Shown here piece by piece: positions 9,555 through 30,165 of a stretch of 64,000 nt of DNA (position 1 is the stretch's first letter; each line of letters begins with the position of its first letter). Below the pieces are notes generated by a model, which did no database searches, was not told the DNA's origin, and was given only the letters and a program-made list of their open reading frames with translations. Both the position numbers and the translations under genes were made by a program. The stretch covers positions 896,001 through 960,000 of the forward strand of contig OY970399.1 in assembly GCA_963720545.1 (NCBI GenBank), given 5' to 3'. This DNA comes from an uncultured Acidobacteriota bacterium (GTDB taxonomy: Bacteria > Acidobacteriota > Vicinamibacteria > Fen-336).

Positions 9555-12399
9555 ATGGGCGCGGTGTCGGCTGCGGCAGGTGTCCAAGGGGAGTATGCTC
9601 TTGAGCCATCACCACTTAGGTCTCGGCCACTGGACCCCTCCACTTGCGAGTCGTGCGGCAGCGGCGAACCCATTGCTGCCGGCCTCTGCCTGAAATGCTC
9701 CTCCGGCGCGCTCAACACCGAGGATGTCGCTTCTCAGGACCTCGGCGCCGTTTCGAGTGACGCGCCGCCCGGTGGCGGCGGTGACGGACGCCGTTCCCTG
9801 TTCGCGCCCGGCCAGGCGTTCGGCACGCGCTACACGATCGTCGAACAGGTCGGCTCGGGCGGCATGGGCACCGTCTACAAGGCGCGCGACGGCGAGACCG
9901 CGCGCACCGTGGCGCTCAAGCTGCTGCGCCCGGACGTGGTCACGCGGGTCGGCGCCCTGTCGCGCTTCAAGCGTGAGCTGGCGCTGGCGCAGACGATCTC
10001 GCACCCGAACGTCTATCGCGTCCACGACCTCGGCGAGGTGCAAGGCACCGCCTTCATCAGCATGGAGTTCATCGAGGGCCAGAGCCTCGACGACCTGATC
10101 CACTCGATGGGCCATCTCTCGCCGCGCCAGACGGTGGCGATCGGCCGGCAGATCTGCGGCGGCCTGCAGGCAATCCACGAGAAGGCAATCGTGCACCGCG
10201 ACCTCAAGCCGTCGAACATCATGGTGGACCTGAACGGCGTCGCGCGGCTGATGGACTTCGGGCTCGCGTACCAGACAGGCTCCGAGCACCTCACGAGCGA
10301 AGGTCAGGTGCTCGGCACCATGGCGTATCTCTCGCCCGAACAGGCGCGCGGCGAAACCCTCGGCGCCGCCTCGGACGTGTTCGCGATGGGCCTCATCCTC
10401 TACGAGATGCTCACCGGCAAGCGCCCGCCGGGCGACGGCAAGCCCATTCCGCTGGCGCTGCGCGGCATCATCGAACCGTGCCCGAAGCCAAGCGTGTTCG
10501 TCCCCGAGATCCCGAAGGCGCTCGACGCCATCGTCATGCGCTGCCTCGACCGCGAACCGGCGAAGCGCTTCCAGTCCGCCGAAGCGCTGGGCGCGGCACT
10601 CGCCGCCATCGCCGCCGGCCAGACGACGCGCATCTCGCTCGGCGCATTGCGCCGTGCGTCGGGCCCGTACGAGGCGTCACGGCGACGACGCTGGCCGTGG
10701 CTGCTCGCAGCAGCGTTGCTGTCCGCGGCGCTGTTCGCCGTGCCGGCGGTACGCAGCAAGGTCGCGGGAATGTTCGGCCGCCACGCCGCACCGCCGCCGG
10801 TCGGCGTCGAAGTCGTAGGCGTGCTGCCGCTGCGGGTGGCGGCGGGCGATGCCGATGGCCAGGATCTCGCGGTCGGCATCGCCGACATGCTCGCGACCGA
10901 TCTCGACGAGGCGGGTTGCGGCTCGGTCCTGCCGCGCACGGCACTGACACACCTCGGCACCGAGGACGTGGACGTGCGCAAGGTCGCGGCCGACCTCGGT
11001 CTCACGCGCGTCGTCACCGGCACTGTCTCGGGCACGCCAGCGGCGATGCGCATGGAGATCAACACCTTCGCCGCGGACGGCAGCCTGGGCCCCGGGTACG
11101 AGGCCGAAGGCGACGCGCTCACGCTGCAGCGGAAAGTGGCCGACCGCTTGGTGGCAATCACCTGCGTCGGTGGCAGCACGCGCGCCGCGCGCGCGCCCAC
11201 TGGCAACGCGCCCGCTTTCCTCGCCTATGCGAAGGGGTTGCGCCTCCTCGATAGGCGCGACCTGCCAGGCAATGCGGCGTTGGCGGTGACTTCGCTCGGG
11301 GAGGCCACGCGCCTCGACCCCAACTTCGCGCTGGCGCACGCGGTCCTTGGCAGCGCATACATGCGGCGCTACGAGGAGACGCGTGAGACCGCCTACACGC
11401 GCAGTGCGCTCAGCGAGATCAGCAAAGCGCTGATACTCGACGCGACACAGCCGCGCGTGCGGCTCATCTACGCCGATGTCCAGCGGTCCGTTGGCGAAGG
11501 AAAGGCAGCTCGCGACGAGATCGAAAAGCTGATCGCCGATCATCCGGAAAACGACGAGGCGCGAGCCCTCTACAGCACGCTTCTGGCTCAGGACGGCGAG
11601 ACGGCGCGCGCCCTCGAGACGGCGCAGGCCGCCGTGGCGCGGCGGCCGAAATATTTCCAGAACCACGCGGCGCTCGGCTACGCCCATGCGATGCGCGGCG
11701 ACTTGCAGGGGTGCATCGACGCGTACACGGCCGCCACCAGCCTGCAGCCCGACTACGCCGACGGCTTCATCATGATGGGCGCGTGCGCGCAGAACGCGGG
11801 CGACAACCAGCGGCGCCCTCGGCTACTACGAGAAGGCGCGCGCGATGGTCAGCGACGCGACGCTCGACTCGAACATCGGCACCGTGCTCTACGACCAGGG
11901 CGAATTCCGGCAGGCGGCCGCGGCGTACGAGCGCGCCGCGAAAGCCATGCCGGGCGAGATGCTCTTCTGGTGGAACCTCGGCGATGCGCGCGAGCGGCTG
12001 GGCGAGCGCGAAGCGGCGCGCGCCGGCTGGAGCCGCGCGGTGTCGGTCGCGCGCCAGGCACTTTCGGTAGACGGCGAAAACGTCCTGACACGCGCGCGCC
12101 TCGGCCTCTGCGAGGCGAAGCTCGGAATGCTGGCGGAGGCGCGGCGAGACATGGACCAGGCCGTGCAGCTCGCACCCCAACGCGGCGAGGTGCTGGCCCT
12201 GCAGGCCGCGGCGCTGGCGGTGGCCGGGCAAAACGAAGAGTCGCTCGCGGCGCTGCGCAAGGCACTCGCGAACGGCTACAGCCGCGAACGCGCAGCGATC
12301 GACCACGACTTGCGCAGCCTGCGCAAGCTGCCCGAATGGGCCGAGCTGGTTTCGGCCGCACAGACAACGCCCGCGTCCGGGCCAGGAGGAACGCGATGA
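9555..12399 (+). CDS. Zn-ribbon + Hanks Ser/Thr kinase + TM + TolB_N-like + TPR receptor-like kinase 1, with one extra base at ~11811-11814
   Basis: CESC...CLKC, GSGGMG, VALK, HRDLKPSN, DFG, SPE, TM WPWLLAAALL; TPRs continue in the frame of ORF 11845..12399 (GALGYYEKARAMVSD...), colinear with paralogue 2; start uncertain. Confidence 0.88.
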
Positions 12400-12878
12400 A
12401 AAGTACTTCGATGGGCGCCGTTTTGCTGTTGGGCACAACGCTCGGCTGCAGTGCGCACCTGTCACCAGTCGACTACTGGCGGCCGCCGAACGAACCGATC
12501 AAGGTGGTGGTGATGCTGCACCCCACACCAGCCAACAAGTGCGTCTCGGTGACGCTGCCGCAGGTGATCTGGGTCGATTCCGGCGACAAGGTGCAGTGGG
12601 ACGTCGTCAACACTTGTCCGGGCAATCCCGAAGTCGTGATGCGCTTCGAGCGCGCCGTGGTGGCGTTCCAGGCGATCGACCGCTTCCCCGGCGACAAGGA
12701 CGCCAAGAAGTACGAGGCCAGACGCGATGGCCGCCAGGAGGAGCAATCGCCGCCTTTCCGCTTTCGCGCCGAGGGCACCGCACAGGGAGAGCGTGGCCTG
12801 CGGGTGAAGTACCGGATCCTCGTGGACAGCCAGGAAGTCGAGGATCCGGGGATCGGGTTCAAGCCGCCGGGAAAGTAG
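12396..12878 (+). CDS. Small exported (lipo)protein, partner 1 of the kinase module
   Basis: RBS AGGAGG, ATGA overlap with the kinase stop, lipobox-like VLLLGTTLG-C; motifs KC..VT.P...GD.V.W...CP and KY...EDP.I. Confidence 0.8.
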   Translation: MKSTSMGAVLLLGTTLGCSAHLSPVDYWRPPNEPIKVVVMLHPTPANKCVSVTLPQVIWVDSGDKVQWDVVNTCPGNPEVVMRFERAVVAFQAIDRFPGDKDAKKYEARRDGRQEEQSPPFRFRAEGTAQGERGLRVKYRILVDSQEVEDPGIGFKPPGK

Positions 12879-12887
12879 CGGCGGCGG

Positions 12888-15617
12888 TTGGCCTCGGCGC
12901 TTTGCGACGTCTGCGGAACCGTAACGCCTCCGGGGAGCGGTGCGTGTCCGAGGTGCTCCTCCTCGGACGGCTTCGTCACCGCTGAGGTCGGGTCGGTGCC
13001 GGCCGATGGCCGTGACGAGCCGGTCGGGGCCGCCTTGCGGCGCGGTCCGCTGCTGCGCCTCGGGGAGCGGTTCGGGCCGCGCTATTCGATCGTCGAGCAG
13101 GTGGGCGCCGGCGGTATGGGCACCGTCTACAAGGCGGTGGACAACGAGACCGGCCAGGTCGTTGCGCTCAAGCTGATCCGCTCCGACCGCATCGCGCGCG
13201 CGGGTGCCCTGACGCGCTTCAAGCGCGAGCTGGCGCTGGCGCAGAAGGTCTCGCATCCCAACGTTTACCGGGTCCACGACCTCGGTGAAGTGGACGGCAA
13301 CGCCTACATCAGCATGCAGTACATCGACGGCCAGAGCCTCGAAGACCTGATCCACTCGATGGGCCACCTCTCGCCGCGGCAGACCGTGAAGCTTGGCCGG
13401 CAGGTGTGCGACGGCCTGCAGGCAATCCACGAGAACGCCATCGTGCACCGCGACCTCAAGCCATCGAACATCATGGTGGACACCGCCGGCGTGGCGCGTC
13501 TCATGGACTTCGGCCTCGCCTACGAAACCGGCTCGGAGCACCTGACCAGCGAGGGCACGGTGCTCGGCACGATGTCGTACCTGTCGCCCGAACAGGCGCG
13601 CGGCGAGCGCGTGGGGCCGCCGTCCGATGTGTTCGCGCTGGGCCTCATCCTCTACGAGATGCTCACCGGTCGCCGGCCGCCCGGCGACGCGAGCCCGGTG
13701 CCGCTCGCGATGCGCGACAACGGAGCGAGCTGCCCACGGCCCAGCCAGTTCGTGCCCGAGGTGCCGCGCGCGATCGACGCGCTGGTGATGCGCGCGCTGG
13801 AGCGCGACCCGGCGCGGCGCTTCCCCACGGCTGCCGCGCTGCGCGCCGCGCTCGACGCCATCGAGCCGCCATCCAGCGGCCATGCCACGCCGGCGCGGCC
13901 GCTGTCGCGGCCCTCCGGCGCCTTCGTGGTGCAGCGTTCGAGCCGCTGGCCGTGGCTCGCCGCCGGGTCTGTGGTCGCGGTACTGGCAATCGCGGCGGCA
14001 CGCGGCTGGCTCGCGCCACGGCCGGCGCCCGCTGCCGCGGTGGCGCCGATCATTGGTATTGCGCCGTGGAGCGTCGCGGCGGGCGATGGTGTCGCCGACG
14101 ACGTCTCGGCCGGCCTCGCCGACGGCCTTGCCACCGACATCGGCGACGGCGGCTGCGCAACCGTGGTCGCACGCACCGAGGTGGCGCGCGCCGATCCCGG
14201 AGGCCGCAGCCCCGGCGCCGCCGCCGCGCGGCTGGGGCTGACGCACGTGCTGAGCGGCAGCCTCTCGCGGTCGCCGGCCGGCTACCGCGTCGAGATGAAC
14301 CTGGTGGCTGCCGACGGCAACGTGGTGTCGCGCGTCGCCGACGCCGACAGCGACGCGTTCGCGCTGCGGCGCCGCCTGGCCGATGGGCTGGTGGGTGCGC
14401 TCTGCGTCGGCGCCGCGCGGCCCGTGGCGGCGCACGGCACCACAGACGTCGGGGCCTTCCTCGACTACTCCCACGGACTGCGCCTCCTCGAGCGTTCCGA
14501 CCAACCCGATGCGGTCGCGGCCGCCATCGCGTCCCTCGAGAAGGCGATCGCCGCCGACCCGGCCTTCGCCATGGCGCACGCCGCGCTCGGCGACGCCTAT
14601 CTTGCGCAATACCGGATCGCGCCCAACGAGGTGCTGCCCGGCAAGGCGCTGAACGCCGCAAGCGAAGCGCTCCGGCTGGCGCCGCGCGCACCGCGCGTGC
14701 GCCTCCTCTACGCCCGCGCCAAGCGCCTGATGGGCTCGAGCGCCTCGGCCGCTGCCGAGTTGCACGCGCTGGTCGAGGAGCGGCCGAAAGATCCCGAAGT
14801 CCACGCAGCTCTCGGCGCGCTCTATGTGGATCTCGCCGACTGGCCGAACGCAGTGGACCACTACCAGAAGGCGCTCGCCCTGCGCCCGGACTACTGGGGC
14901 AGCCACGCGCGGCTCGGCTTCGCTTACTTGAAGATGGGCCGGGTGGACGACGCGGTCGCGGCCTACATGCACGCGACCGTGCTGCAGCCCGACAACGCCC
15001 AGGCACTGCAGATGCTCGGGACCGCATACGTCGCGCAGGGCGACCTCCCGCGAGCGCGGGACAGCTACTCCAAGGCGATCGCGCTGCGTCCCGACTCGAT
15101 GTCGTTCCTCAACCTCGGCACGATCGAGTTCGACAGCGGCGACTTCGCGGCCGCGAAGCGCTCGTACGCGCGCGCGGTGGACCTCGACGAGGGCCGCGCG
15201 GCGCTGTGGCGGGGCCTGGGCGACGCGAACGCCGCGCTCGGAATGCGCGACGATGCGCGCCGCAGCTTTGAGGAGTGTGCGCGCCTCTCGCGACTCGCGG
15301 CCAGCCTCGATGGCGCCAATGCCGAGGCGCTCGCGGAGGGCGCGGTGTGCGCACAAAAGCTCGGTGACAGCGCCGCTGCAGAGCGCGACATCGCGCGGGC
15401 GGTGGCGCTCGCGCCGAAGAATGGCGAAGTGCTCTACCTGTCGGCGCTGGTGCGGCTGCTGCAGGGACGCGACCAGGACGCGATCGCGGCGGTACGCGAC
15501 GCGGTCGGCAGCGGCTACTCGGCGCAGCGGCCGAAACAGGACTACGAGTTCCGCAAGTTGCGCGACAATGCGGCATTCGCCAGCGCGCTCGCGGCTGGAC
15601 CGGACGGGAGGCACTGA
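12888..15617 (+). CDS. Zn-ribbon + Hanks Ser/Thr kinase + TM + TolB_N-like + TPR receptor-like kinase 2
   Basis: CDVC...CPRC, GAGGMG, HRDLKPSN, DFG, SPE, TM RWPWLAAGSVVAVLAIAAA, multiple TPRs; TTG start. Confidence 0.9.
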   Translation: MASALCDVCGTVTPPGSGACPRCSSSDGFVTAEVGSVPADGRDEPVGAALRRGPLLRLGERFGPRYSIVEQVGAGGMGTVYKAVDNETGQVVALKLIRSDRIARAGALTRFKRELALAQKVSHPNVYRVHDLGEVDGNAYISMQYIDGQSLEDLIHSMGHLSPRQTVKLGRQVCDGLQAIHENAIVHRDLKPSNIMVDTAGVARLMDFGLAYETGSEHLTSEGTVLGTMSYLSPEQARGERVGPPSDVFALGLILYEMLTGRRPPGDASPVPLAMRDNGASCPRPSQFVPEVPRAIDALVMRALERDPARRFPTAAALRAALDAIEPPSSGHATPARPLSRPSGAFVVQRSSRWPWLAAGSVVAVLAIAAARGWLAPRPAPAAAVAPIIGIAPWSVAAGDGVADDVSAGLADGLATDIGDGGCATVVARTEVARADPGGRSPGAAAARLGLTHVLSGSLSRSPAGYRVEMNLVAADGNVVSRVADADSDAFALRRRLADGLVGALCVGAARPVAAHGTTDVGAFLDYSHGLRLLERSDQPDAVAAAIASLEKAIAADPAFAMAHAALGDAYLAQYRIAPNEVLPGKALNAASEALRLAPRAPRVRLLYARAKRLMGSSASAAAELHALVEERPKDPEVHAALGALYVDLADWPNAVDHYQKALALRPDYWGSHARLGFAYLKMGRVDDAVAAYMHATVLQPDNAQALQMLGTAYVAQGDLPRARDSYSKAIALRPDSMSFLNLGTIEFDSGDFAAAKRSYARAVDLDEGRAALWRGLGDANAALGMRDDARRSFEECARLSRLAASLDGANAEALAEGAVCAQKLGDSAAAERDIARAVALAPKNGEVLYLSALVRLLQGRDQDAIAAVRDAVGSGYSAQRPKQDYEFRKLRDNAAFASALAAGPDGRH

Positions 15618-15618
15618 G

Positions 15619-16185
15619 GTGCGACGATCGAGGCTGGTTCGAAACGTGCTGGCGGCGCCGCTCCCGCTCCTTGCCCTGGCCGCGGCCGCCGCGCCGGCAG
15701 CGGCAGCTACCGTGACGATCACCGTGTTCCTGCGCGTGGACGCCGCCGGCAAGTGCACGACCGTCACGCCCGGTGTCGCCGAAGCGGCGCCCGGCGACAC
15801 GCTCGAGTGGCGGGTGGTGCACGTGCGCAGCGGCGGCAACGGCTGCCCCGCCGCGACGCGCCTGCAGGTGGAGTTCCCCAGGCTCGCCGTCGGCCACGTG
15901 GCGGCACCCGCGGCGCAGCCCGCAGCCGAGCAGGTGGAAGAGGCCGCGTTCACCACCCGGCGCGAGGCGCTCGACCGCCGCCTCGCCCCGGCCGACCGCG
16001 AGAAGCTGCGTCGCTTCGCCACCCGCGCCGAGCCCGCCCCGGGCGGCGAGATGACGATCGGCGCCGCGTTCGCCTCGCGCCTCACCGCGAAGGCGATCGG
16101 CGCGCCTGGTCTCTACAAGTACAACGTGCGCATCGTCGGCGGCGCCATCGAGGACCCGCCGATCAAGATCATGAGCCCGCCCTAG
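15619..16185 (+). CDS. Small secreted protein, partner 2 of the kinase module
   Basis: GTG 1 nt after the kinase stop; signal peptide LAAPLPLLALAAAAAPAAAA; same motifs as partner 1 (KCTTVTPG...GDTLEW...CP, KYNV...EDPPI). Confidence 0.75.
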   Translation: MRRSRLVRNVLAAPLPLLALAAAAAPAAAATVTITVFLRVDAAGKCTTVTPGVAEAAPGDTLEWRVVHVRSGGNGCPAATRLQVEFPRLAVGHVAAPAAQPAAEQVEEAAFTTRREALDRRLAPADREKLRRFATRAEPAPGGEMTIGAAFASRLTAKAIGAPGLYKYNVRIVGGAIEDPPIKIMSPP

Positions 16186-16194
16186 CCGAAGCCG

Positions 16195-17832
16195 TCAGAT
16201 GTGGACGCCCGGCGCCTCGTGGCCGGTGCGCTCCACGTACTCGACGTACGAGCCCGGGTAGAGGTGCGGCTGCGGTTCGGTGCCGGTCTCGCCGCCCAGC
16301 TCCAGCACGCGGTTGCTGAGGCCGCGCAGGAAGGTGCGGTCGTGAGAGACGAACAGCATCGTGCCCTCGTAGTCGCGAAGCGCCTCGACCAGCATTTCCT
16401 TCGTCGCCAGGTCGAGATGGTTGGTAGGCTCGTCGAGCACCAGGAAGTTGGGCGGGTCGTTCAGCATGCGCGCGATCACCAGGCGCGACTTCTCGCCGCC
16501 TGAGAGCGCGCGAATCTTCTTCTCGACGTCCTCCCCGGAGAACTGGAAGGCGCCGAGCAGCCCGCGCAGGGCGCCAACCGTCTCCATCGGGAAATCGCGC
16601 TGGAACTGCTCCCAGATGGTGAGGCTCGGGTCGAGCAGGTCGAGCGACTGTTGCGCGAAATACCCGAGCTTGAGGCTGGCGCCGAGCTTGACGGCGCCGC
16701 TGTCGGGCGCCAGCTGGCCCGCGACCATGCGCAGCAGCGTCGTCTTGCCGGCACCGTTTCGGCCCATGACGCACCAGCGTTCGCCGCGGCGGATCACCAT
16801 GCTCAGGCCGTCGTGGACCACGCGGCGGCCGTACGATTTCGCGACCGAGTCGAGGGTTGCCACCTCGTCGCCCGAGCGCGGCGGGCGGCGGAAGTCGAAG
16901 CGCACCACCACGCGCTTCTTCGGCAGCTCGATCTTCTCGATCTTCTCGAGCGCCTTCACCCGGCTCTGCACCTGCGCCGCCTTCGCAGCGTGCGCGGAGA
17001 AGCGGTCGATGAAACGCTGCTCCTTGGCGAGCATCGCCTGCTGGCGCGCGTACGCGGCCTCGCGATTCTGCTCGCGGATGGCGCGCTCGCGCTCGTAGAA
17101 GTCGTAATCGCCCGAATACACCGTGATCTCGCCCGAGTCGATCTCGGCGACCTTCGCGACGATGCGGTTCATGAAGGCGCGGTCGTGCGAGGTCATCAGC
17201 AAGGCGCTCGGCACCGACTGCAGGAACTGCTCCAGCCAGAGGATCGACTCGATGTCGAGGTGGTTGGTGGGCTCGTCCATCAGCAGCACGTCGGGCCGCC
17301 CCAGCAGCACCCGCGCCATCGCGACCCGCATCTTCCAGCCGCCGGAGAGGGCGCCGACGTCGCCGTCGATGCGCTCGTCGTCGAAGCCCAGGCCATGCAG
17401 CACCTCGCGCGCGCGGCTCTCGAGCGCGTAGCCGCCGAGGTGGTCGTACTCCTCCTGCACCTCGCCGAAGCGCGCCAGCACCTTGTCCATGTCGTCGGCT
17501 TGTTCGGGATCGCCCATCGCGTGCTGCAGCGCCTCGAGCTCGTGGTGCAGAGAACCGAGCCGGCCGCTGCCGGCGATCGCCTCGTCGAGCACCGAGCGCC
17601 CCGACATCTCCTCGACGTCCTGGCGGAAGTAGCCGATGGTGAGCTTCTTTGGCACCGACACCTCGCCGTCGTCGGCTGTCTCCTCGCCGACGATCATGCG
17701 GAAGAGCGTCGTCTTGCCGGCGCCGTTCGGGCCGACGAGGCCGACCTTCTCGCCCGGATTGAGCTGGAAGGAGGCGTCGACGAACAGGAGTTGCCGCCCG
17801 TACTGCTTGTTGACCGAGGCGAACGAGATCAC
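16195..17832 (-). CDS. ABC-F family ATPase (ribosome-associated)
   Basis: Two ABC domains (GPNGAGKT/LSGGW/DEPTNHLD and GRNGAGKT/LSGGE/DEPTNHLD), interdomain linker, no TM; GTG start overlaps the WYL stop. Confidence 0.93.
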   Translation of the reverse strand: MISFASVNKQYGRQLLFVDASFQLNPGEKVGLVGPNGAGKTTLFRMIVGEETADDGEVSVPKKLTIGYFRQDVEEMSGRSVLDEAIAGSGRLGSLHHELEALQHAMGDPEQADDMDKVLARFGEVQEEYDHLGGYALESRAREVLHGLGFDDERIDGDVGALSGGWKMRVAMARVLLGRPDVLLMDEPTNHLDIESILWLEQFLQSVPSALLMTSHDRAFMNRIVAKVAEIDSGEITVYSGDYDFYERERAIREQNREAAYARQQAMLAKEQRFIDRFSAHAAKAAQVQSRVKALEKIEKIELPKKRVVVRFDFRRPPRSGDEVATLDSVAKSYGRRVVHDGLSMVIRRGERWCVMGRNGAGKTTLLRMVAGQLAPDSGAVKLGASLKLGYFAQQSLDLLDPSLTIWEQFQRDFPMETVGALRGLLGAFQFSGEDVEKKIRALSGGEKSRLVIARMLNDPPNFLVLDEPTNHLDLATKEMLVEALRDYEGTMLFVSHDRTFLRGLSNRVLELGGETGTEPQPHLYPGSYVEYVERTGHEAPGVHI

Positions 17833-18803
17833 TCGAAGCTGCGCCGGGCTTTTTCGATGTCCTTCGCGACCGAGTCGCGCAGCGACGCCGGCTGGATGAC
17901 CCGCGAGTGCGGCAGGAAGCTCTTCACCCACGCCTGCAGCTCGAAGCCGGGCGAGACGTTCATCCGCAGGACCACCGAGCCGTCGGGCTTGTCGGTCAGC
18001 TCCTGGCTCTCGTGCCAGACGCGCTCGCGGATGTAACCCGCGATCTCGGCGTCGAAGGCGATCTCGACCTTCTCCGGCTTGCCGCCGGCGATGCCGAAGG
18101 CGCCGCGGCCGTAGTCGGCGATGTCGAAGTCGGCGGGCACCTGGAACTTCTCGTCGAGCACCTCGATGCGCTCGATGCGCTCCACCGCGAAGGTGCGCAC
18201 CTGCGCGTGTTCCTCGGAGCGCGCGTACAGGTAGAGGCCGCCGTGGTAGTAGACGACGCGGTAGGGATCGAGCGTGTACGACTTGGTGCGCTTCGAGCTG
18301 AACGAGAAGTAGGCGATGCGCGCGCGCCGCTGGTGCAGGGTCGCGTCGATCAGCGCCTCGATCACGTCGCGCTTCTTCGAGTAGTCCTTCCACGGATCGG
18401 GGCGGGTGGCGAACAGCCCCTGCACGCGCGCCAGGTACGGCAGGCTCTTCGCCGGCAGCGCCTCCTGGATCTTGGCGAACGCCGACTCGAGGTCAGCGGC
18501 GAACGGCGAGCCGCCGAGGAACGACATCAGGTTCTTGCTGAAGAAGAGCGCCGACAGCTCGGCGAGCGAGAAGGTCTGCGCGAGCTTCTGGCGGTAGCCC
18601 TCGATGAGTTTCCACACCTTCTTGCCGCTGTCGGCGCGCTCGTCGTAGAGCGGGAAGCCGGCTTCCTGCAGCGCCTCGATGTCGCGGCGGATGGTGCGCT
18701 CGGTGACGCCGTGCTCCGCCGCCATCGCCTGCGTGGTGGTGTAGCGGCCGGTTTCGATCGTCTTCAGGATCCGCCATTGGCGGATCACCTCGGCGTTGCG
18801 CAT
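17829..18803 (-). CDS. HTH-WYL-WCX transcriptional regulator (YafY/PafBC/DriD-like)
   Basis: wHTH GVTERTIRRDIEALQEAGFP; WYL LDPYRVVYYHGGLYLYA...RTFAVERI; WCX ERVWHESQ, VIQPASLR. Confidence 0.92.
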   Translation of the reverse strand: MRNAEVIRQWRILKTIETGRYTTTQAMAAEHGVTERTIRRDIEALQEAGFPLYDERADSGKKVWKLIEGYRQKLAQTFSLAELSALFFSKNLMSFLGGSPFAADLESAFAKIQEALPAKSLPYLARVQGLFATRPDPWKDYSKKRDVIEALIDATLHQRRARIAYFSFSSKRTKSYTLDPYRVVYYHGGLYLYARSEEHAQVRTFAVERIERIEVLDEKFQVPADFDIADYGRGAFGIAGGKPEKVEIAFDAEIAGYIRERVWHESQELTDKPDGSVVLRMNVSPGFELQAWVKSFLPHSRVIQPASLRDSVAKDIEKARRSFE

Positions 18804-28154: not shown

Positions 28155-28664
28155 CTACTGGCCGTACACGACGATGTCGGAGAGGTTGCGGTACTTCTCG
28201 TTGTAGTCGAGACCGTAGCCGACCACGAAGCGGTCCTCGATCTCGAAGCCGACGTAGTCCGCCTGCACCTGCACCAGCCGGCGCGACGGCTTCGACAGCA
28301 GCGAGGCGACCTTCACCGAGCGCGGCCCGCGGTTGCGCAGCAGGTTGATGAGGTAATTGAGCGTGAGGCCGGTGTCGACGATGTCCTCCACCACGATCAG
28401 GTCCTTGCCCTCGAGACCCTGGTCGAGGTCCTTGATGAGGCGCACCTCGCCGGAGGTCTTGGTGGCTGCGCCGTAGGAGGAGACCGCGATGTAGTCGAGG
28501 GTGAGCGGCAGGTCGATCTGGCGGCACAGGTCGGTCATGAACGAGCACGCGCCTTTCAGCACGCACACCATGTGCGGCTCCCTGCCCGCGTAGTCCCTGG
28601 TGATCGCGGCGCCCAACTCCTGGATGCGGTCCTGGATCTGGGCGCGCGAGAGAAGAACCTTCAT
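28155..28664 (-). CDS. hpt: Hypoxanthine phosphoribosyltransferase
   Basis: VLKGA, VSSYG, VEDIVDTGLTL, FVVGYGLDYNEKYRNL. Confidence 0.95.
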   Translation of the reverse strand: MKVLLSRAQIQDRIQELGAAITRDYAGREPHMVCVLKGACSFMTDLCRQIDLPLTLDYIAVSSYGAATKTSGEVRLIKDLDQGLEGKDLIVVEDIVDTGLTLNYLINLLRNRGPRSVKVASLLSKPSRRLVQVQADYVGFEIEDRFVVGYGLDYNEKYRNLSDIVVYGQ

Positions 28665-28776
28665 TTCGGTCAGGGCTCACTCCTTGAATGAAGACGGTGC
28701 CGGATGGCAAATTATAAGTGCTATATTCAGCCACCTTCCCAAAGACGCGGCCTTTTTGGCATTCCCTCGGAGATTC

Positions 28777-30165
28777 TTGGCGACCATCCTTGTTGTCGAC
28801 AACGATCCGGAGACGGTCGGCCTGACGCGGGCGGCCATGGCCCTCGCAGGCCATGAGGTCCTGACGACACTCGACCAGTCGAAGATCATCACGCTCGCCA
28901 AGGCGGCGCACGTGTCGGCCGTGGTTCTCGAGGTGCTGCTGCCCGACTTCTCGGGCTTCGACGTGCTGCGCGCGCTGCGCAAGGACCCGGACACCGCGAA
29001 GATGCCGGTGCTCATCACCTCGGTGCTCGGTTCCGGCGGCGACCGGGTGCGCGGGCTGTATGAGGGCGCCGACGATTACCTGACGAAGCCGTTCGTGCCG
29101 CTCGAGCTGGTGCTGCGCACCCAGCGGCTCATCGCGCGCGCCGAGGCCGACACCGCCCAGGACCAGAGCGAGTCCATCCGCCGCAGCCTGGCGCGCATCG
29201 AGCACCTGCGCGCCGAGGGCAAGCCGCTGACCGAGGTGGTCCTCGGCCGCTACCAGGTCACCGACATCCTCGGCGAAGGCGCCATGGGCACCGTGTTCCG
29301 CGGCTTCGACCCGCGCCTCAAGCGCTCGGTGGCGCTCAAGACCATCCGCCTCGTCGAGCATGTGGTGGAAGGCGACCCGAGCGAGCGCGTCCACCGCCTG
29401 CTGCTCGAGGCGATGATGGTCGCGCAGATCTCGAGCCCCAACATCGTCGCCGTCTACGACGTCGGGCACGCCCGCGACGCCGGCTACATCGTCATGGAGC
29501 TGGTGGACGGCCCCTCGCTGGAGACGCTCCTGGCGCGGGTCGGCAAGCTGACCGCGGCGCAGGCCGTGCCGCTCGCAGCCGCAATGTTCCGCGGCCTCGC
29601 CGCTGCCCACGACCATCGCCTCGTGCATCATGACGTGAAGCCCGGCAACGTGCTGCTGGGGCGCTCCGCCACCGTCAAGCTCACCGACTTCGGCGTCGCG
29701 GAGCTGCTGTCGGGCTGGGTGAAGGACTCGGAGAAGGTGTTCGGCACGCCGGGCTACCTGCCGCCCGAGGCGATCCGCGGCGACGGCTACGACCAGCGCG
29801 GCGACATCTTCGCGGCCGGCGTCGTCCTCTACCAGTGCCTCACCGGCGAGCGCGCGTTCGCCTCGGACACCGTCGAGGGCACGCTGCTGAAGACGGTGCG
29901 CGAACCGCTGCCGGCGACGTCGAAGACCAACGACACCGTGCCCGAGGAGCTCGATGCGCTGGTCGCCGAGCTGACCGCGAAGCACAAGTCGGCGCGCACG
30001 CGCACCGCCACTCTCGCGGCCGAGCGCCTCGAGAAACTGGCGTCGCGGAACGAATGGCGCTGGGACGCGTCGATCCTCGACATCCCCGGACGTCCCGAAG
30101 TCGCTGAGCAGGAGGCGCTTCGCGCGCGCCCCGTGCCGACCGCGCGCGTCGACCCCGCGCCTTAG
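28777..30165 (+). CDS. Receiver domain-Ser/Thr kinase fusion (cytoplasmic)
   Basis: ILVVDND...VVLEVLLP...GADDYLTKPF, then GEGAMG, VALK, HHDVKPGN, DFG, GTPGYLPPE; TTG start after GGAG. Confidence 0.88.
   Translation: MATILVVDNDPETVGLTRAAMALAGHEVLTTLDQSKIITLAKAAHVSAVVLEVLLPDFSGFDVLRALRKDPDTAKMPVLITSVLGSGGDRVRGLYEGADDYLTKPFVPLELVLRTQRLIARAEADTAQDQSESIRRSLARIEHLRAEGKPLTEVVLGRYQVTDILGEGAMGTVFRGFDPRLKRSVALKTIRLVEHVVEGDPSERVHRLLLEAMMVAQISSPNIVAVYDVGHARDAGYIVMELVDGPSLETLLARVGKLTAAQAVPLAAAMFRGLAAAHDHRLVHHDVKPGNVLLGRSATVKLTDFGVAELLSGWVKDSEKVFGTPGYLPPEAIRGDGYDQRGDIFAAGVVLYQCLTGERAFASDTVEGTLLKTVREPLPATSKTNDTVPEELDALVAELTAKHKSARTRTATLAAERLEKLASRNEWRWDASILDIPGRPEVAEQEALRARPVPTARVDPAP

Follow-up and report, generated by a model that had tools for sequence, protein, structure and literature searches.

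In Enterobacteriaceae, the sensor histidine kinase QseE and the accessory outer-membrane lipoprotein QseG are encoded adjacent to one another, as stated in two reports (PMC6075780, PMC12691602), and the small lipoprotein gene lies directly downstream of the membrane sensor kinase gene in the same operon. A similar order, sensor kinase followed by lipoprotein gene, is conserved across a large clade for MtrB and LpqB of Actinobacteria. Here we describe a comparable arrangement in a 64-kb stretch of DNA (hereafter the window) from the 4.09-Mb single-contig genome, of ~70% GC, of an uncultured Acidobacteriota bacterium. Four tightly packed genes lie head to tail on the + strand (window 9555-16185) in the order K1-S1-K2-S2, K1 and K2 encoding receptor Ser/Thr kinases and S1 and S2 encoding small proteins with putative export signals. 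We document the gene structure, domain content, conserved linkage, coupling, and co-duplication of these genes, and we conclude that K and S very probably form a conserved functional unit. The fuller reading, for which we see nearly an even chance, is that the region is a single operon that arose when a conserved signalling unit of two genes was duplicated in tandem within this lineage, and that in this unit S would act as an accessory or co-sensor protein of its own kinase.

A profile of the S family was searched against 41 close relatives, 401 genomes across the phylum, and 401 genomes (164 genera) across the class; S was present in 3, 15, and 58 of these genomes, respectively, the last number corresponding to 27 of the 164 genera. 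All reported S places outside this genome were inspected, in three sets. In the first (16 places, 4 kb upstream read), 14 places show a full-length homologue with kinase domain, transmembrane (TM) helix, TolB_N domain, and tetratricopeptide repeats (TPRs), which aligns to K2 residues ~60 to ~900 and ends at or overlaps the start of S; the 2 exceptions are distant S members in other families. Linkage was found at 21 of the 22 places of the second set, for which mostly 1.5 kb upstream was read, so that a homologue of the K2 ectodomain was identified and the kinase domain fell outside the stretch. The third set comprised 29 weaker places, 24 of them linked, 4 unlinked, and 1 at a contig end. The sequence-only reading that preceded this work had proposed looking for S homologues directly downstream of kinase-TM-TPR genes elsewhere, and indeed, of the 66 places that could be assessed in other genomes of this phylum, 59 have a K-type gene ending just 5' of S, a ratio that overstates the number of independent observations because of kinship, although the linked loci span at least 27 genera.

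The two genes are also closely apposed. Eight of the 14 linked loci of the first set have a 4-nt overlap between the K stop and the S start; in the window, the K1 stop and S1 start overlap as ATGA with AGGAGG positioned 6 nt 5' of the S1 ATG, the S2 GTG lies 1 nt past the K2 stop with GGGAGG 7 nt 5' of it, and K2 starts 9 nt past the S1 stop. From this geometry, S is predicted to be made together with K through translational coupling. No conserved third gene was found around the K-S pair, the surrounding genes varying between loci. Despite 38 Pkinase matches in this genome, several of them with C-terminal parts of the TolB-N/TPR type, it holds only two S genes, those behind K1 and K2. A scan of metagenome contigs with S1 returned one short, distant locus, and a scan of genome contigs returned one locus.

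Some individual loci have features of their own. Two genomes of one genus carry S-like lipoprotein genes with no K-type gene within 3 kb upstream (L077 in G720 and L073 in G740), and in G720 the first such gene is followed by a second, weak S-like open reading frame (ORF). The open frame of the kinase at L091 (G536) ends with a stretch of 44 aa that weakly resembles S (E 1e-4), which may reflect a fusion or a frame error. In a metagenome-assembled genome of Vicinamibacteria, a gene encoding Trans_reg_C and FHA domains (L022:48-866, - strand) lies just upstream of the K gene on the opposite strand, 1.3 kb having been read per locus; such an EmbR-like layout is that of a typical reader of Ser/Thr phosphorylation.

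The coordinates of the four genes are collected in Table 1. The module had been described as hidden in the ORF track, and this holds for both small genes: S1 shares one 1107-aa open frame with the N-terminal part of K1, and the frame of S2 is open back to 15253, upstream of its start.

Table 1 Features of the K1-S1-K2-S2 locus (positions in the window).
Feature	Position	Strand	Content
K1, N-terminal part (751 codons)	9555..11807	+	Ribbon, kinase domain, TM helix, TolB-N-like domain, first TPRs
K1, extra base (+1 frame shift)	11805..11812	+	Read directly in the window sequence
K1, C-terminal part (195 codons)	11812..12399	+	TPR array in the next frame; stop TGA at 12397-12399
S1 (160 aa)	12396..12878	+	Signal peptide with lipobox (..TTLGC), Cys pair, predicted 9-strand beta sandwich
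K2 (909 aa)	12888..15617	+	Ribbon, kinase domain, TM helix, TolB-N-like domain, TPR array
S2 (188 aa)	15619..16185	+	GTG start, Sec-type signal peptide with no lipobox Cys, same Cys pair as S1

K1 and K2 match Pkinase (PF00069) with 171.1 bits (E 4e-50) and 179.4 bits (E 1e-52), respectively, far above the cut-off of 31.7. Hanks-type kinases are recognized by the VAxK lysine, the HRDxKxxN loop, and DFG; VALK, HRDLKPSN, and DFG are found in both K1 and K2, and VAxK, HRD, and DFG in all 18 related kinases checked. Judged by these motifs, K1 and K2 are active-looking and predicted to be catalytically competent Hanks-type Ser/Thr kinases. The kinase domain (aa 93-345 in K1, aa 66-318 in K2) is preceded by a four-Cys ribbon of the form CxxC-x10-CxxC, CESCGSGEPIAAGLCLKC in K1 (aa 31-48) and CDVCGTVTPPGSGACPRC in K2 (aa 6-23), whose two CxxC knuckles have the spacing of a zinc ribbon (~10-20 residues apart) and which may bind metal; neither kinase gave a zinc-ribbon row in Pfam, and among the 18 related kinases the ribbon was found in K1, K2, and one relative (G023) only. 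A single hydrophobic TM helix follows the kinase domain (~aa 379-399 in K1, ~aa 354-375 in K2), and beyond it K2 has a TolB-N-like domain (aa 385-520) and a TPR array (aa 521-905). The kinase domain would thus be cytoplasmic, with the TolB-N-like domain and the TPR array outside the inner membrane. Many TPR families of Pfam, including TPR_2, TPR_11, TPR_1, and TPR_19, match K2 and both parts of K1.

The ~150 residues past the TM helix form an alpha/beta domain in the AlphaFold2 (AF2) model, with a predicted local distance difference test score (pLDDT) of 86. In a Foldseek search with this domain, all rows through rank 15 are TolB N-terminal domains (E 2.5e-6 to 2e-5, TM score 0.54-0.61, 16-22% identity), followed by PelC, LpoB, and FlgT, whereas the TolB_N profile of Pfam gave no row for K1 or K2 at E up to 0.1. 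The earlier label of TolB_N-like is therefore valid at the level of the fold but not at that of the sequence profile. Overall, K1 and K2 are 50% identical over 726 aa, with 76% identity in the kinase domain, 39% in the TolB-N-like part, and 38% in the TPR part; the kinase domains are thus close paralogues, as had been claimed from the runs DLIHSMGHLSPRQTV and AIVHRDLKPSNIMVD, both of which are present in the K1/K2 alignment. The same alignment contains the ectodomain Cys pairs that had been pointed out (GCGSV/TCVG and GCATV/LCVG), but these are private to K1 and K2, being absent from 14 other aligned homologues.

S1 and S2 are homologous to one another (27% identical, pairwise E 6e-8) and each begins with an export signal, in line with the sequence-only reading; signals, lipoboxes, and TM topology of all S proteins were judged by eye from the N-termini. 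The signal peptide of S1 is short, and the lipobox at its end (MKSTSMGAVLLLGTTLGC, followed by S) fits the PROSITE-type lipobox pattern; S2 has a positively charged, Ala/Leu-rich Sec-type signal peptide and no lipobox Cys. Both keep two Cys residues, a Trp, and the motifs G-x-x-K-Y and E-D-P near the C-terminus, and S2 has an insertion of ~30 aa relative to S1. S1 is probably a lipoprotein and S2 probably a soluble periplasmic protein, each with one predicted disulfide. In an alignment of 28 S sequences, P55, Y139, D150, and P151 are invariant and T53, W68, G134, K138, and E149 nearly so. The S profile retrieved just 28 proteins at E up to 0.001 from 1.84 billion cluster representatives, nearly all of 94-190 aa. 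P0019 (3639 aa), also matched by the profile and the only long protein among the 28 matches, is a receptor tyrosine phosphatase of eukaryotic type containing 34 FN3 stretches, and we rejected it as a fused form of S in favour of a generic beta-sandwich resemblance.

Apart from scattered single chance rows, S1, S2, and the 28 family members have no match in Pfam at E up to 1 or in NCBIfam at E up to 0.1, and the family profile finds nothing below E 0.25 among PDB sequences. The open-access literature, surveyed at the level of listings and abstracts, yielded no paper describing a protein that partners Hanks kinases of the TPR type. The claim that no described system of this form is known has therefore held up, in that neither a family model nor a paper was found for the small protein in these sources; neither the S family nor its strict association with a single kinase subfamily appears to have been described.

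The AF2 model of S1 is a nine-strand beta sandwich with a mean pLDDT of 65 (72-87 in blocks 4-9, aa 31-90). Its VIA Z scores are 8.6 with EhICP2, 7.6 with nitrosocyanin, and 6.8 with plastocyanin and chagasin, against a background that the tool states as 7-8; Foldseek aligns it to laccase and NirK domains (E 2e-4 to 1e-2, TM score 0.4-0.6), and MakD and SO1698 are also among the structural neighbours at a background-level score. The S1 model, possibly of cupredoxin-like or Ig-like fold, aligns to cupredoxin-like and chagasin-type (ICP) beta sandwiches at background scores and with no match at the sequence level. Since the fold scores are at background level, the fold gives no functional pointer, and we rejected fold-based functions for S (cupredoxin, ICP, MakD, SO1698). 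In particular, a blue-copper cupredoxin identity was discarded because the 28-sequence alignment has no invariant His or Met copper ligands and the Cys pair is lost in members with no signal peptide; the known loop motifs of ICPs are absent from S1 and S2. The DP-EP family (PF08985), suggested by a protein atlas at 0.75-0.76, gave no profile match in the whole genome (E up to 10) or in the 28 members (E up to 1) and was likewise set aside.

The duplicated unit of ribbon, kinase, TM helix, TolB_N-like domain, and TPRs with its small protein, seen from the sequence alone as occurring twice in a row, is confirmed as a genuine tandem duplication. In trees built from the kinase domain, from the ectodomain, and from the full-length protein, K1 groups with K2 as its sister (support 98, 99, and 100/100, respectively); in the first and the third of these trees, the next to branch off is the one kinase of G023. 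We considered gene conversion between the two kinase domains, which is not needed, given that K1 and K2 are sisters in both tree partitions; four-fold third-position identity is ~64/96 in core kinase windows (K1 aa 99-298) versus roughly half in the ectodomain, a difference that is suggestive only at 70% GC. S1 and S2 fall into one clade together with metagenome proteins that have no genomic context (97 SH-aLRT, the approximate likelihood-ratio test, in a quick tree; 81/99 in a careful tree). Each has nearer relatives of its own (P0012 for S1, P0009-P0011 for S2), so that the split between them is not very recent.

The distances between the two units are 0.29 for the kinase domain, 1.17 for the ectodomain, and 1.93 for S, the last two being equal to those measured to the orthologues in G023. 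Since the duplication, S and the sensor part have therefore diverged much faster than the catalytic part, in line with the strong divergence of both that had been noted from the sequence alone. A second K-S-K-S tandem occurs in three species of one genus (g44) of another family (L060 in G747, L061 in G517, and L093 in G628). Its two kinases group inside the clade of their own family, which indicates an independent duplication; the pair has thus been copied as a unit at least twice. In these tandems the first S lacks a signal peptide, having a Lys-rich N-terminal tail in 2 of the 3 species, and the second S is a lipoprotein.

Because S1, S2, and the sensor part of K would all be located outside the inner membrane, the most likely mechanism is that S acts as an accessory or co-sensor on the ectodomain of its own kinase. 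Each S would sit on the periplasmic side of the kinase as an accessory subunit or co-sensor and would set or relay the signal that switches kinase activity. Following the duplication, the ectodomains and S would have diverged while the kinase domains stayed 76% identical, providing two inputs into similar outputs. The physical binding of K and S, its site, and the direction of control are what we infer here. The proposal that each of the two S proteins works via the ectodomain of the kinase encoded with it is tentative, and we give it somewhat less than an even chance.

Several observations weigh against this proposal or against the wider reading of the locus. At 7 of the 66 assessable places, no K-type gene lies upstream of S; the fold of S is generic; and K1 is frameshifted in the window itself. 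Although many S homologues are lipoproteins or carry signal peptides, ~25 of 67 were read as having no signal peptide and still stand directly behind the kinase gene, examples being L024, L025, and L035. Some of these have a tail rich in Lys, Ala, and Pro (L026, L027, and the first S of each g44 tandem), and a few S proteins have an N-terminal TM helix whose flanking charges, read by eye, suggest a cytoplasmic domain. For five signal-less S genes, the frames upstream were found free of any overlooked signal peptide; the Cys pair is missing from their products. As the signal-less forms keep the linkage, ectodomain binding cannot be its general basis. The idea of co-evolving receptor and partner pairs also found no support in a comparison of distance matrices: S distances track those of the kinase domain (partial r 0.38, p 0.0006) and show no signal beyond shared descent with the ectodomain (partial r 0.09, p 0.29), a comparison that is itself weak because S distances are near saturation (~2 substitutions per site). 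When a complex of mature S2 (159 aa, 25-row alignment) and the K2 ectodomain (525 aa, 15-row alignment) was predicted, both runs gave a score of 0.00 against a mark of 0.32; this prediction was run with no controls and counts neither way on binding.

These observations lend themselves to another reading, in which K and S are a functional pair with no contact at the TPR ectodomain. S would be a substrate, adaptor, or regulator that meets the kinase at its membrane or cytoplasmic part in the signal-less lineages, and the exported S1 and S2 would represent a derived state in which the contact has changed or been lost. The linked homologues with neither export signal nor, where read, Cys pair fit this reading, as do the Lys-rich tails and charge-biased TM anchors that would hold some S proteins at the cytoplasmic face, the correlation of S distances with kinase-domain distances, and the second tandem lineage with one signal-less S and one lipoprotein S. 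However, with their clear export signals and conserved Cys pair, S1 and S2 cannot meet the kinase domain, and the core residues (T..P, W, G..KY, EDP), which are invariant or nearly so, are common to exported and signal-less forms, which argues for one conserved surface rather than two modes. We regard contact away from the ectodomain as improbable.

A bolder version of the partner hypothesis accommodates both the exported and the signal-less forms. S would be the dedicated, stoichiometric partner of one subfamily of receptor Ser/Thr kinases, and its domain would repeatedly have changed membrane faces, being placed on the periplasmic or the cytoplasmic side as a lipoprotein, in soluble periplasmic form, tethered by a TM helix, with a polybasic tail, or in soluble cytoplasmic form, while always remaining coupled to the kinase, with duplicated pairs insulated by parallel divergence of S and the sensor part. 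Taken as a whole, this proposal is rather unlikely.

A dedicated partnership might also be only apparent, S being an envelope protein that is only expressed together with K, such as an inhibitor or binding protein needed along with the kinase pathway, and that never contacts K directly, and the duplication having simply copied a piece of the operon. We obtained no evidence of contact between K and S, the neighbourhood is otherwise variable, and the fold is like that of small periplasmic inhibitor or binding domains (chagasin-type ICP, MakD, cupredoxin-like), at background-level scores, all of which would be compatible with such a role. Mere co-expression does not readily explain the strict linkage to one kinase subfamily across a class (59/66), the frequent overlap of stop and start codons, the two independent co-duplications of the pair, or the restriction of S genes in this genome to these two positions, and we give it a low probability, similar to that of contact elsewhere on the kinase.

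The reading frame of K1 breaks at ~11807, one extra base being present within ~11805-11812. Near-identical contigs from two public soil runs of different studies (X1 and X7) have one base fewer at 11807, which restores the frame, and the contig of a third run ends at the break site. An orthologue encoded on a 1.06-Mb contig (P0036, 946 aa), 96% and 95% identical to the two K1 parts, is uninterrupted across the junction, and a second near-identical assembly (P0035) is uninterrupted at this site and frameshifted at other places. As the break is missing from the soil contigs and from the orthologue, we concluded that it is an indel or assembly error or a lesion private to this strain and assembly, and no part of the system. 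The 44.3-kb public contig that is near-identical to the window (P0035, P0006) lacks the break of the window and has K1 and S1 orthologues truncated by other frame breaks, which suggests that assemblies of this organism are indel-prone. Decay of the first unit, in which a genuine +1 frameshift would have turned K1 into a pseudogene and left K2-S2 (plus an orphan S1) as the only working part, would account for the extra base in the window sequence and the broken frame, but it is unlikely given that this base is missing from contigs of two studies, the 946-aa orthologue is intact, the pattern in P0035 fits indel errors, and the C-terminal part of K1 has kept its TPR frame open, with 37% identity to K2.

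The locus is flanked upstream by a family-2 glycosyltransferase gene and downstream, on the other strand, by genes for an ABC-F ATPase and a WYL/WCX regulator. The latter, a helix-turn-helix (HTH)-WYL-WCX protein encoded at window 17829-18803 (-), adjoins the module and is also encoded directly after the single K-S pair of G023 (L004/L037); this synteny was seen only between these two genomes. Scanning the region for promoters and terminators gave nothing useful. A 1207-aa, Arg/Ala-rich open frame runs antisense to S1, K2, and S2 (window 12462-16085, -); it is typical of chance ORFs at 70% GC and has no bearing on the K-S finding. Further along, an ORF at window 28600-30165 (+) encodes a two-component/Hanks hybrid, with the receiver domain of a response regulator at aa 63-172 and a Pkinase domain at aa 218-470.

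Bacterial receptor Ser/Thr kinases with TPR ectodomains abound in soil phyla, and for almost none of them is a signal or a partner known. An unannotated S family that is kinase-linked, translationally coupled, and co-duplicated offers a concrete two-protein system in which binding and control of autophosphorylation can be studied, and natural paralogue pairs (K1/S1 versus K2/S2, and the g44 tandems) permit specificity swaps. The division of the S family into exported and non-exported forms is notable in its own right. Were S indeed a dedicated partner that switches membrane faces, the pair would give bacterial Hanks-type kinases their first accessory-protein system, and with it a natural experiment on how the membrane side of kinase control is rewired; were S a passenger, the finding would shrink to an ordinary duplicated kinase operon.

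The architecture of the kinases is already known: K1 and K2 are ordinary members of the Hanks-type receptor kinases with TolB-like and TPR ectodomains, which are publicly annotated as 'serine/threonine-protein kinase' or 'TPR repeat protein/TolB-like protein'. What distinguishes them from other TolB-like/TPR receptor kinases is the S gene, found behind this subfamily only and not behind the other kinases of this genome. LpqB is a much larger lipoprotein, of a family unrelated to S, and MtrB belongs to a histidine kinase system. S showed no sequence relation to any named family in Pfam, NCBIfam, or PDB sequences. QseE is likewise a histidine kinase acting with a response regulator rather than a Hanks-type kinase, and has no TolB-N/TPR ectodomain; its reports present the binding of QseG as demonstrated, whereas for S the link known here consists of gene order, coupling, and a shared compartment. 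With these differences, we file the pair, by analogy, as a sensor kinase with a dedicated accessory protein, a known kind of arrangement, and the behaviour ascribed to QseG in those reports, meeting its kinase in the periplasm and controlling its phosphorylation state, would serve as the working model for S1 and S2.

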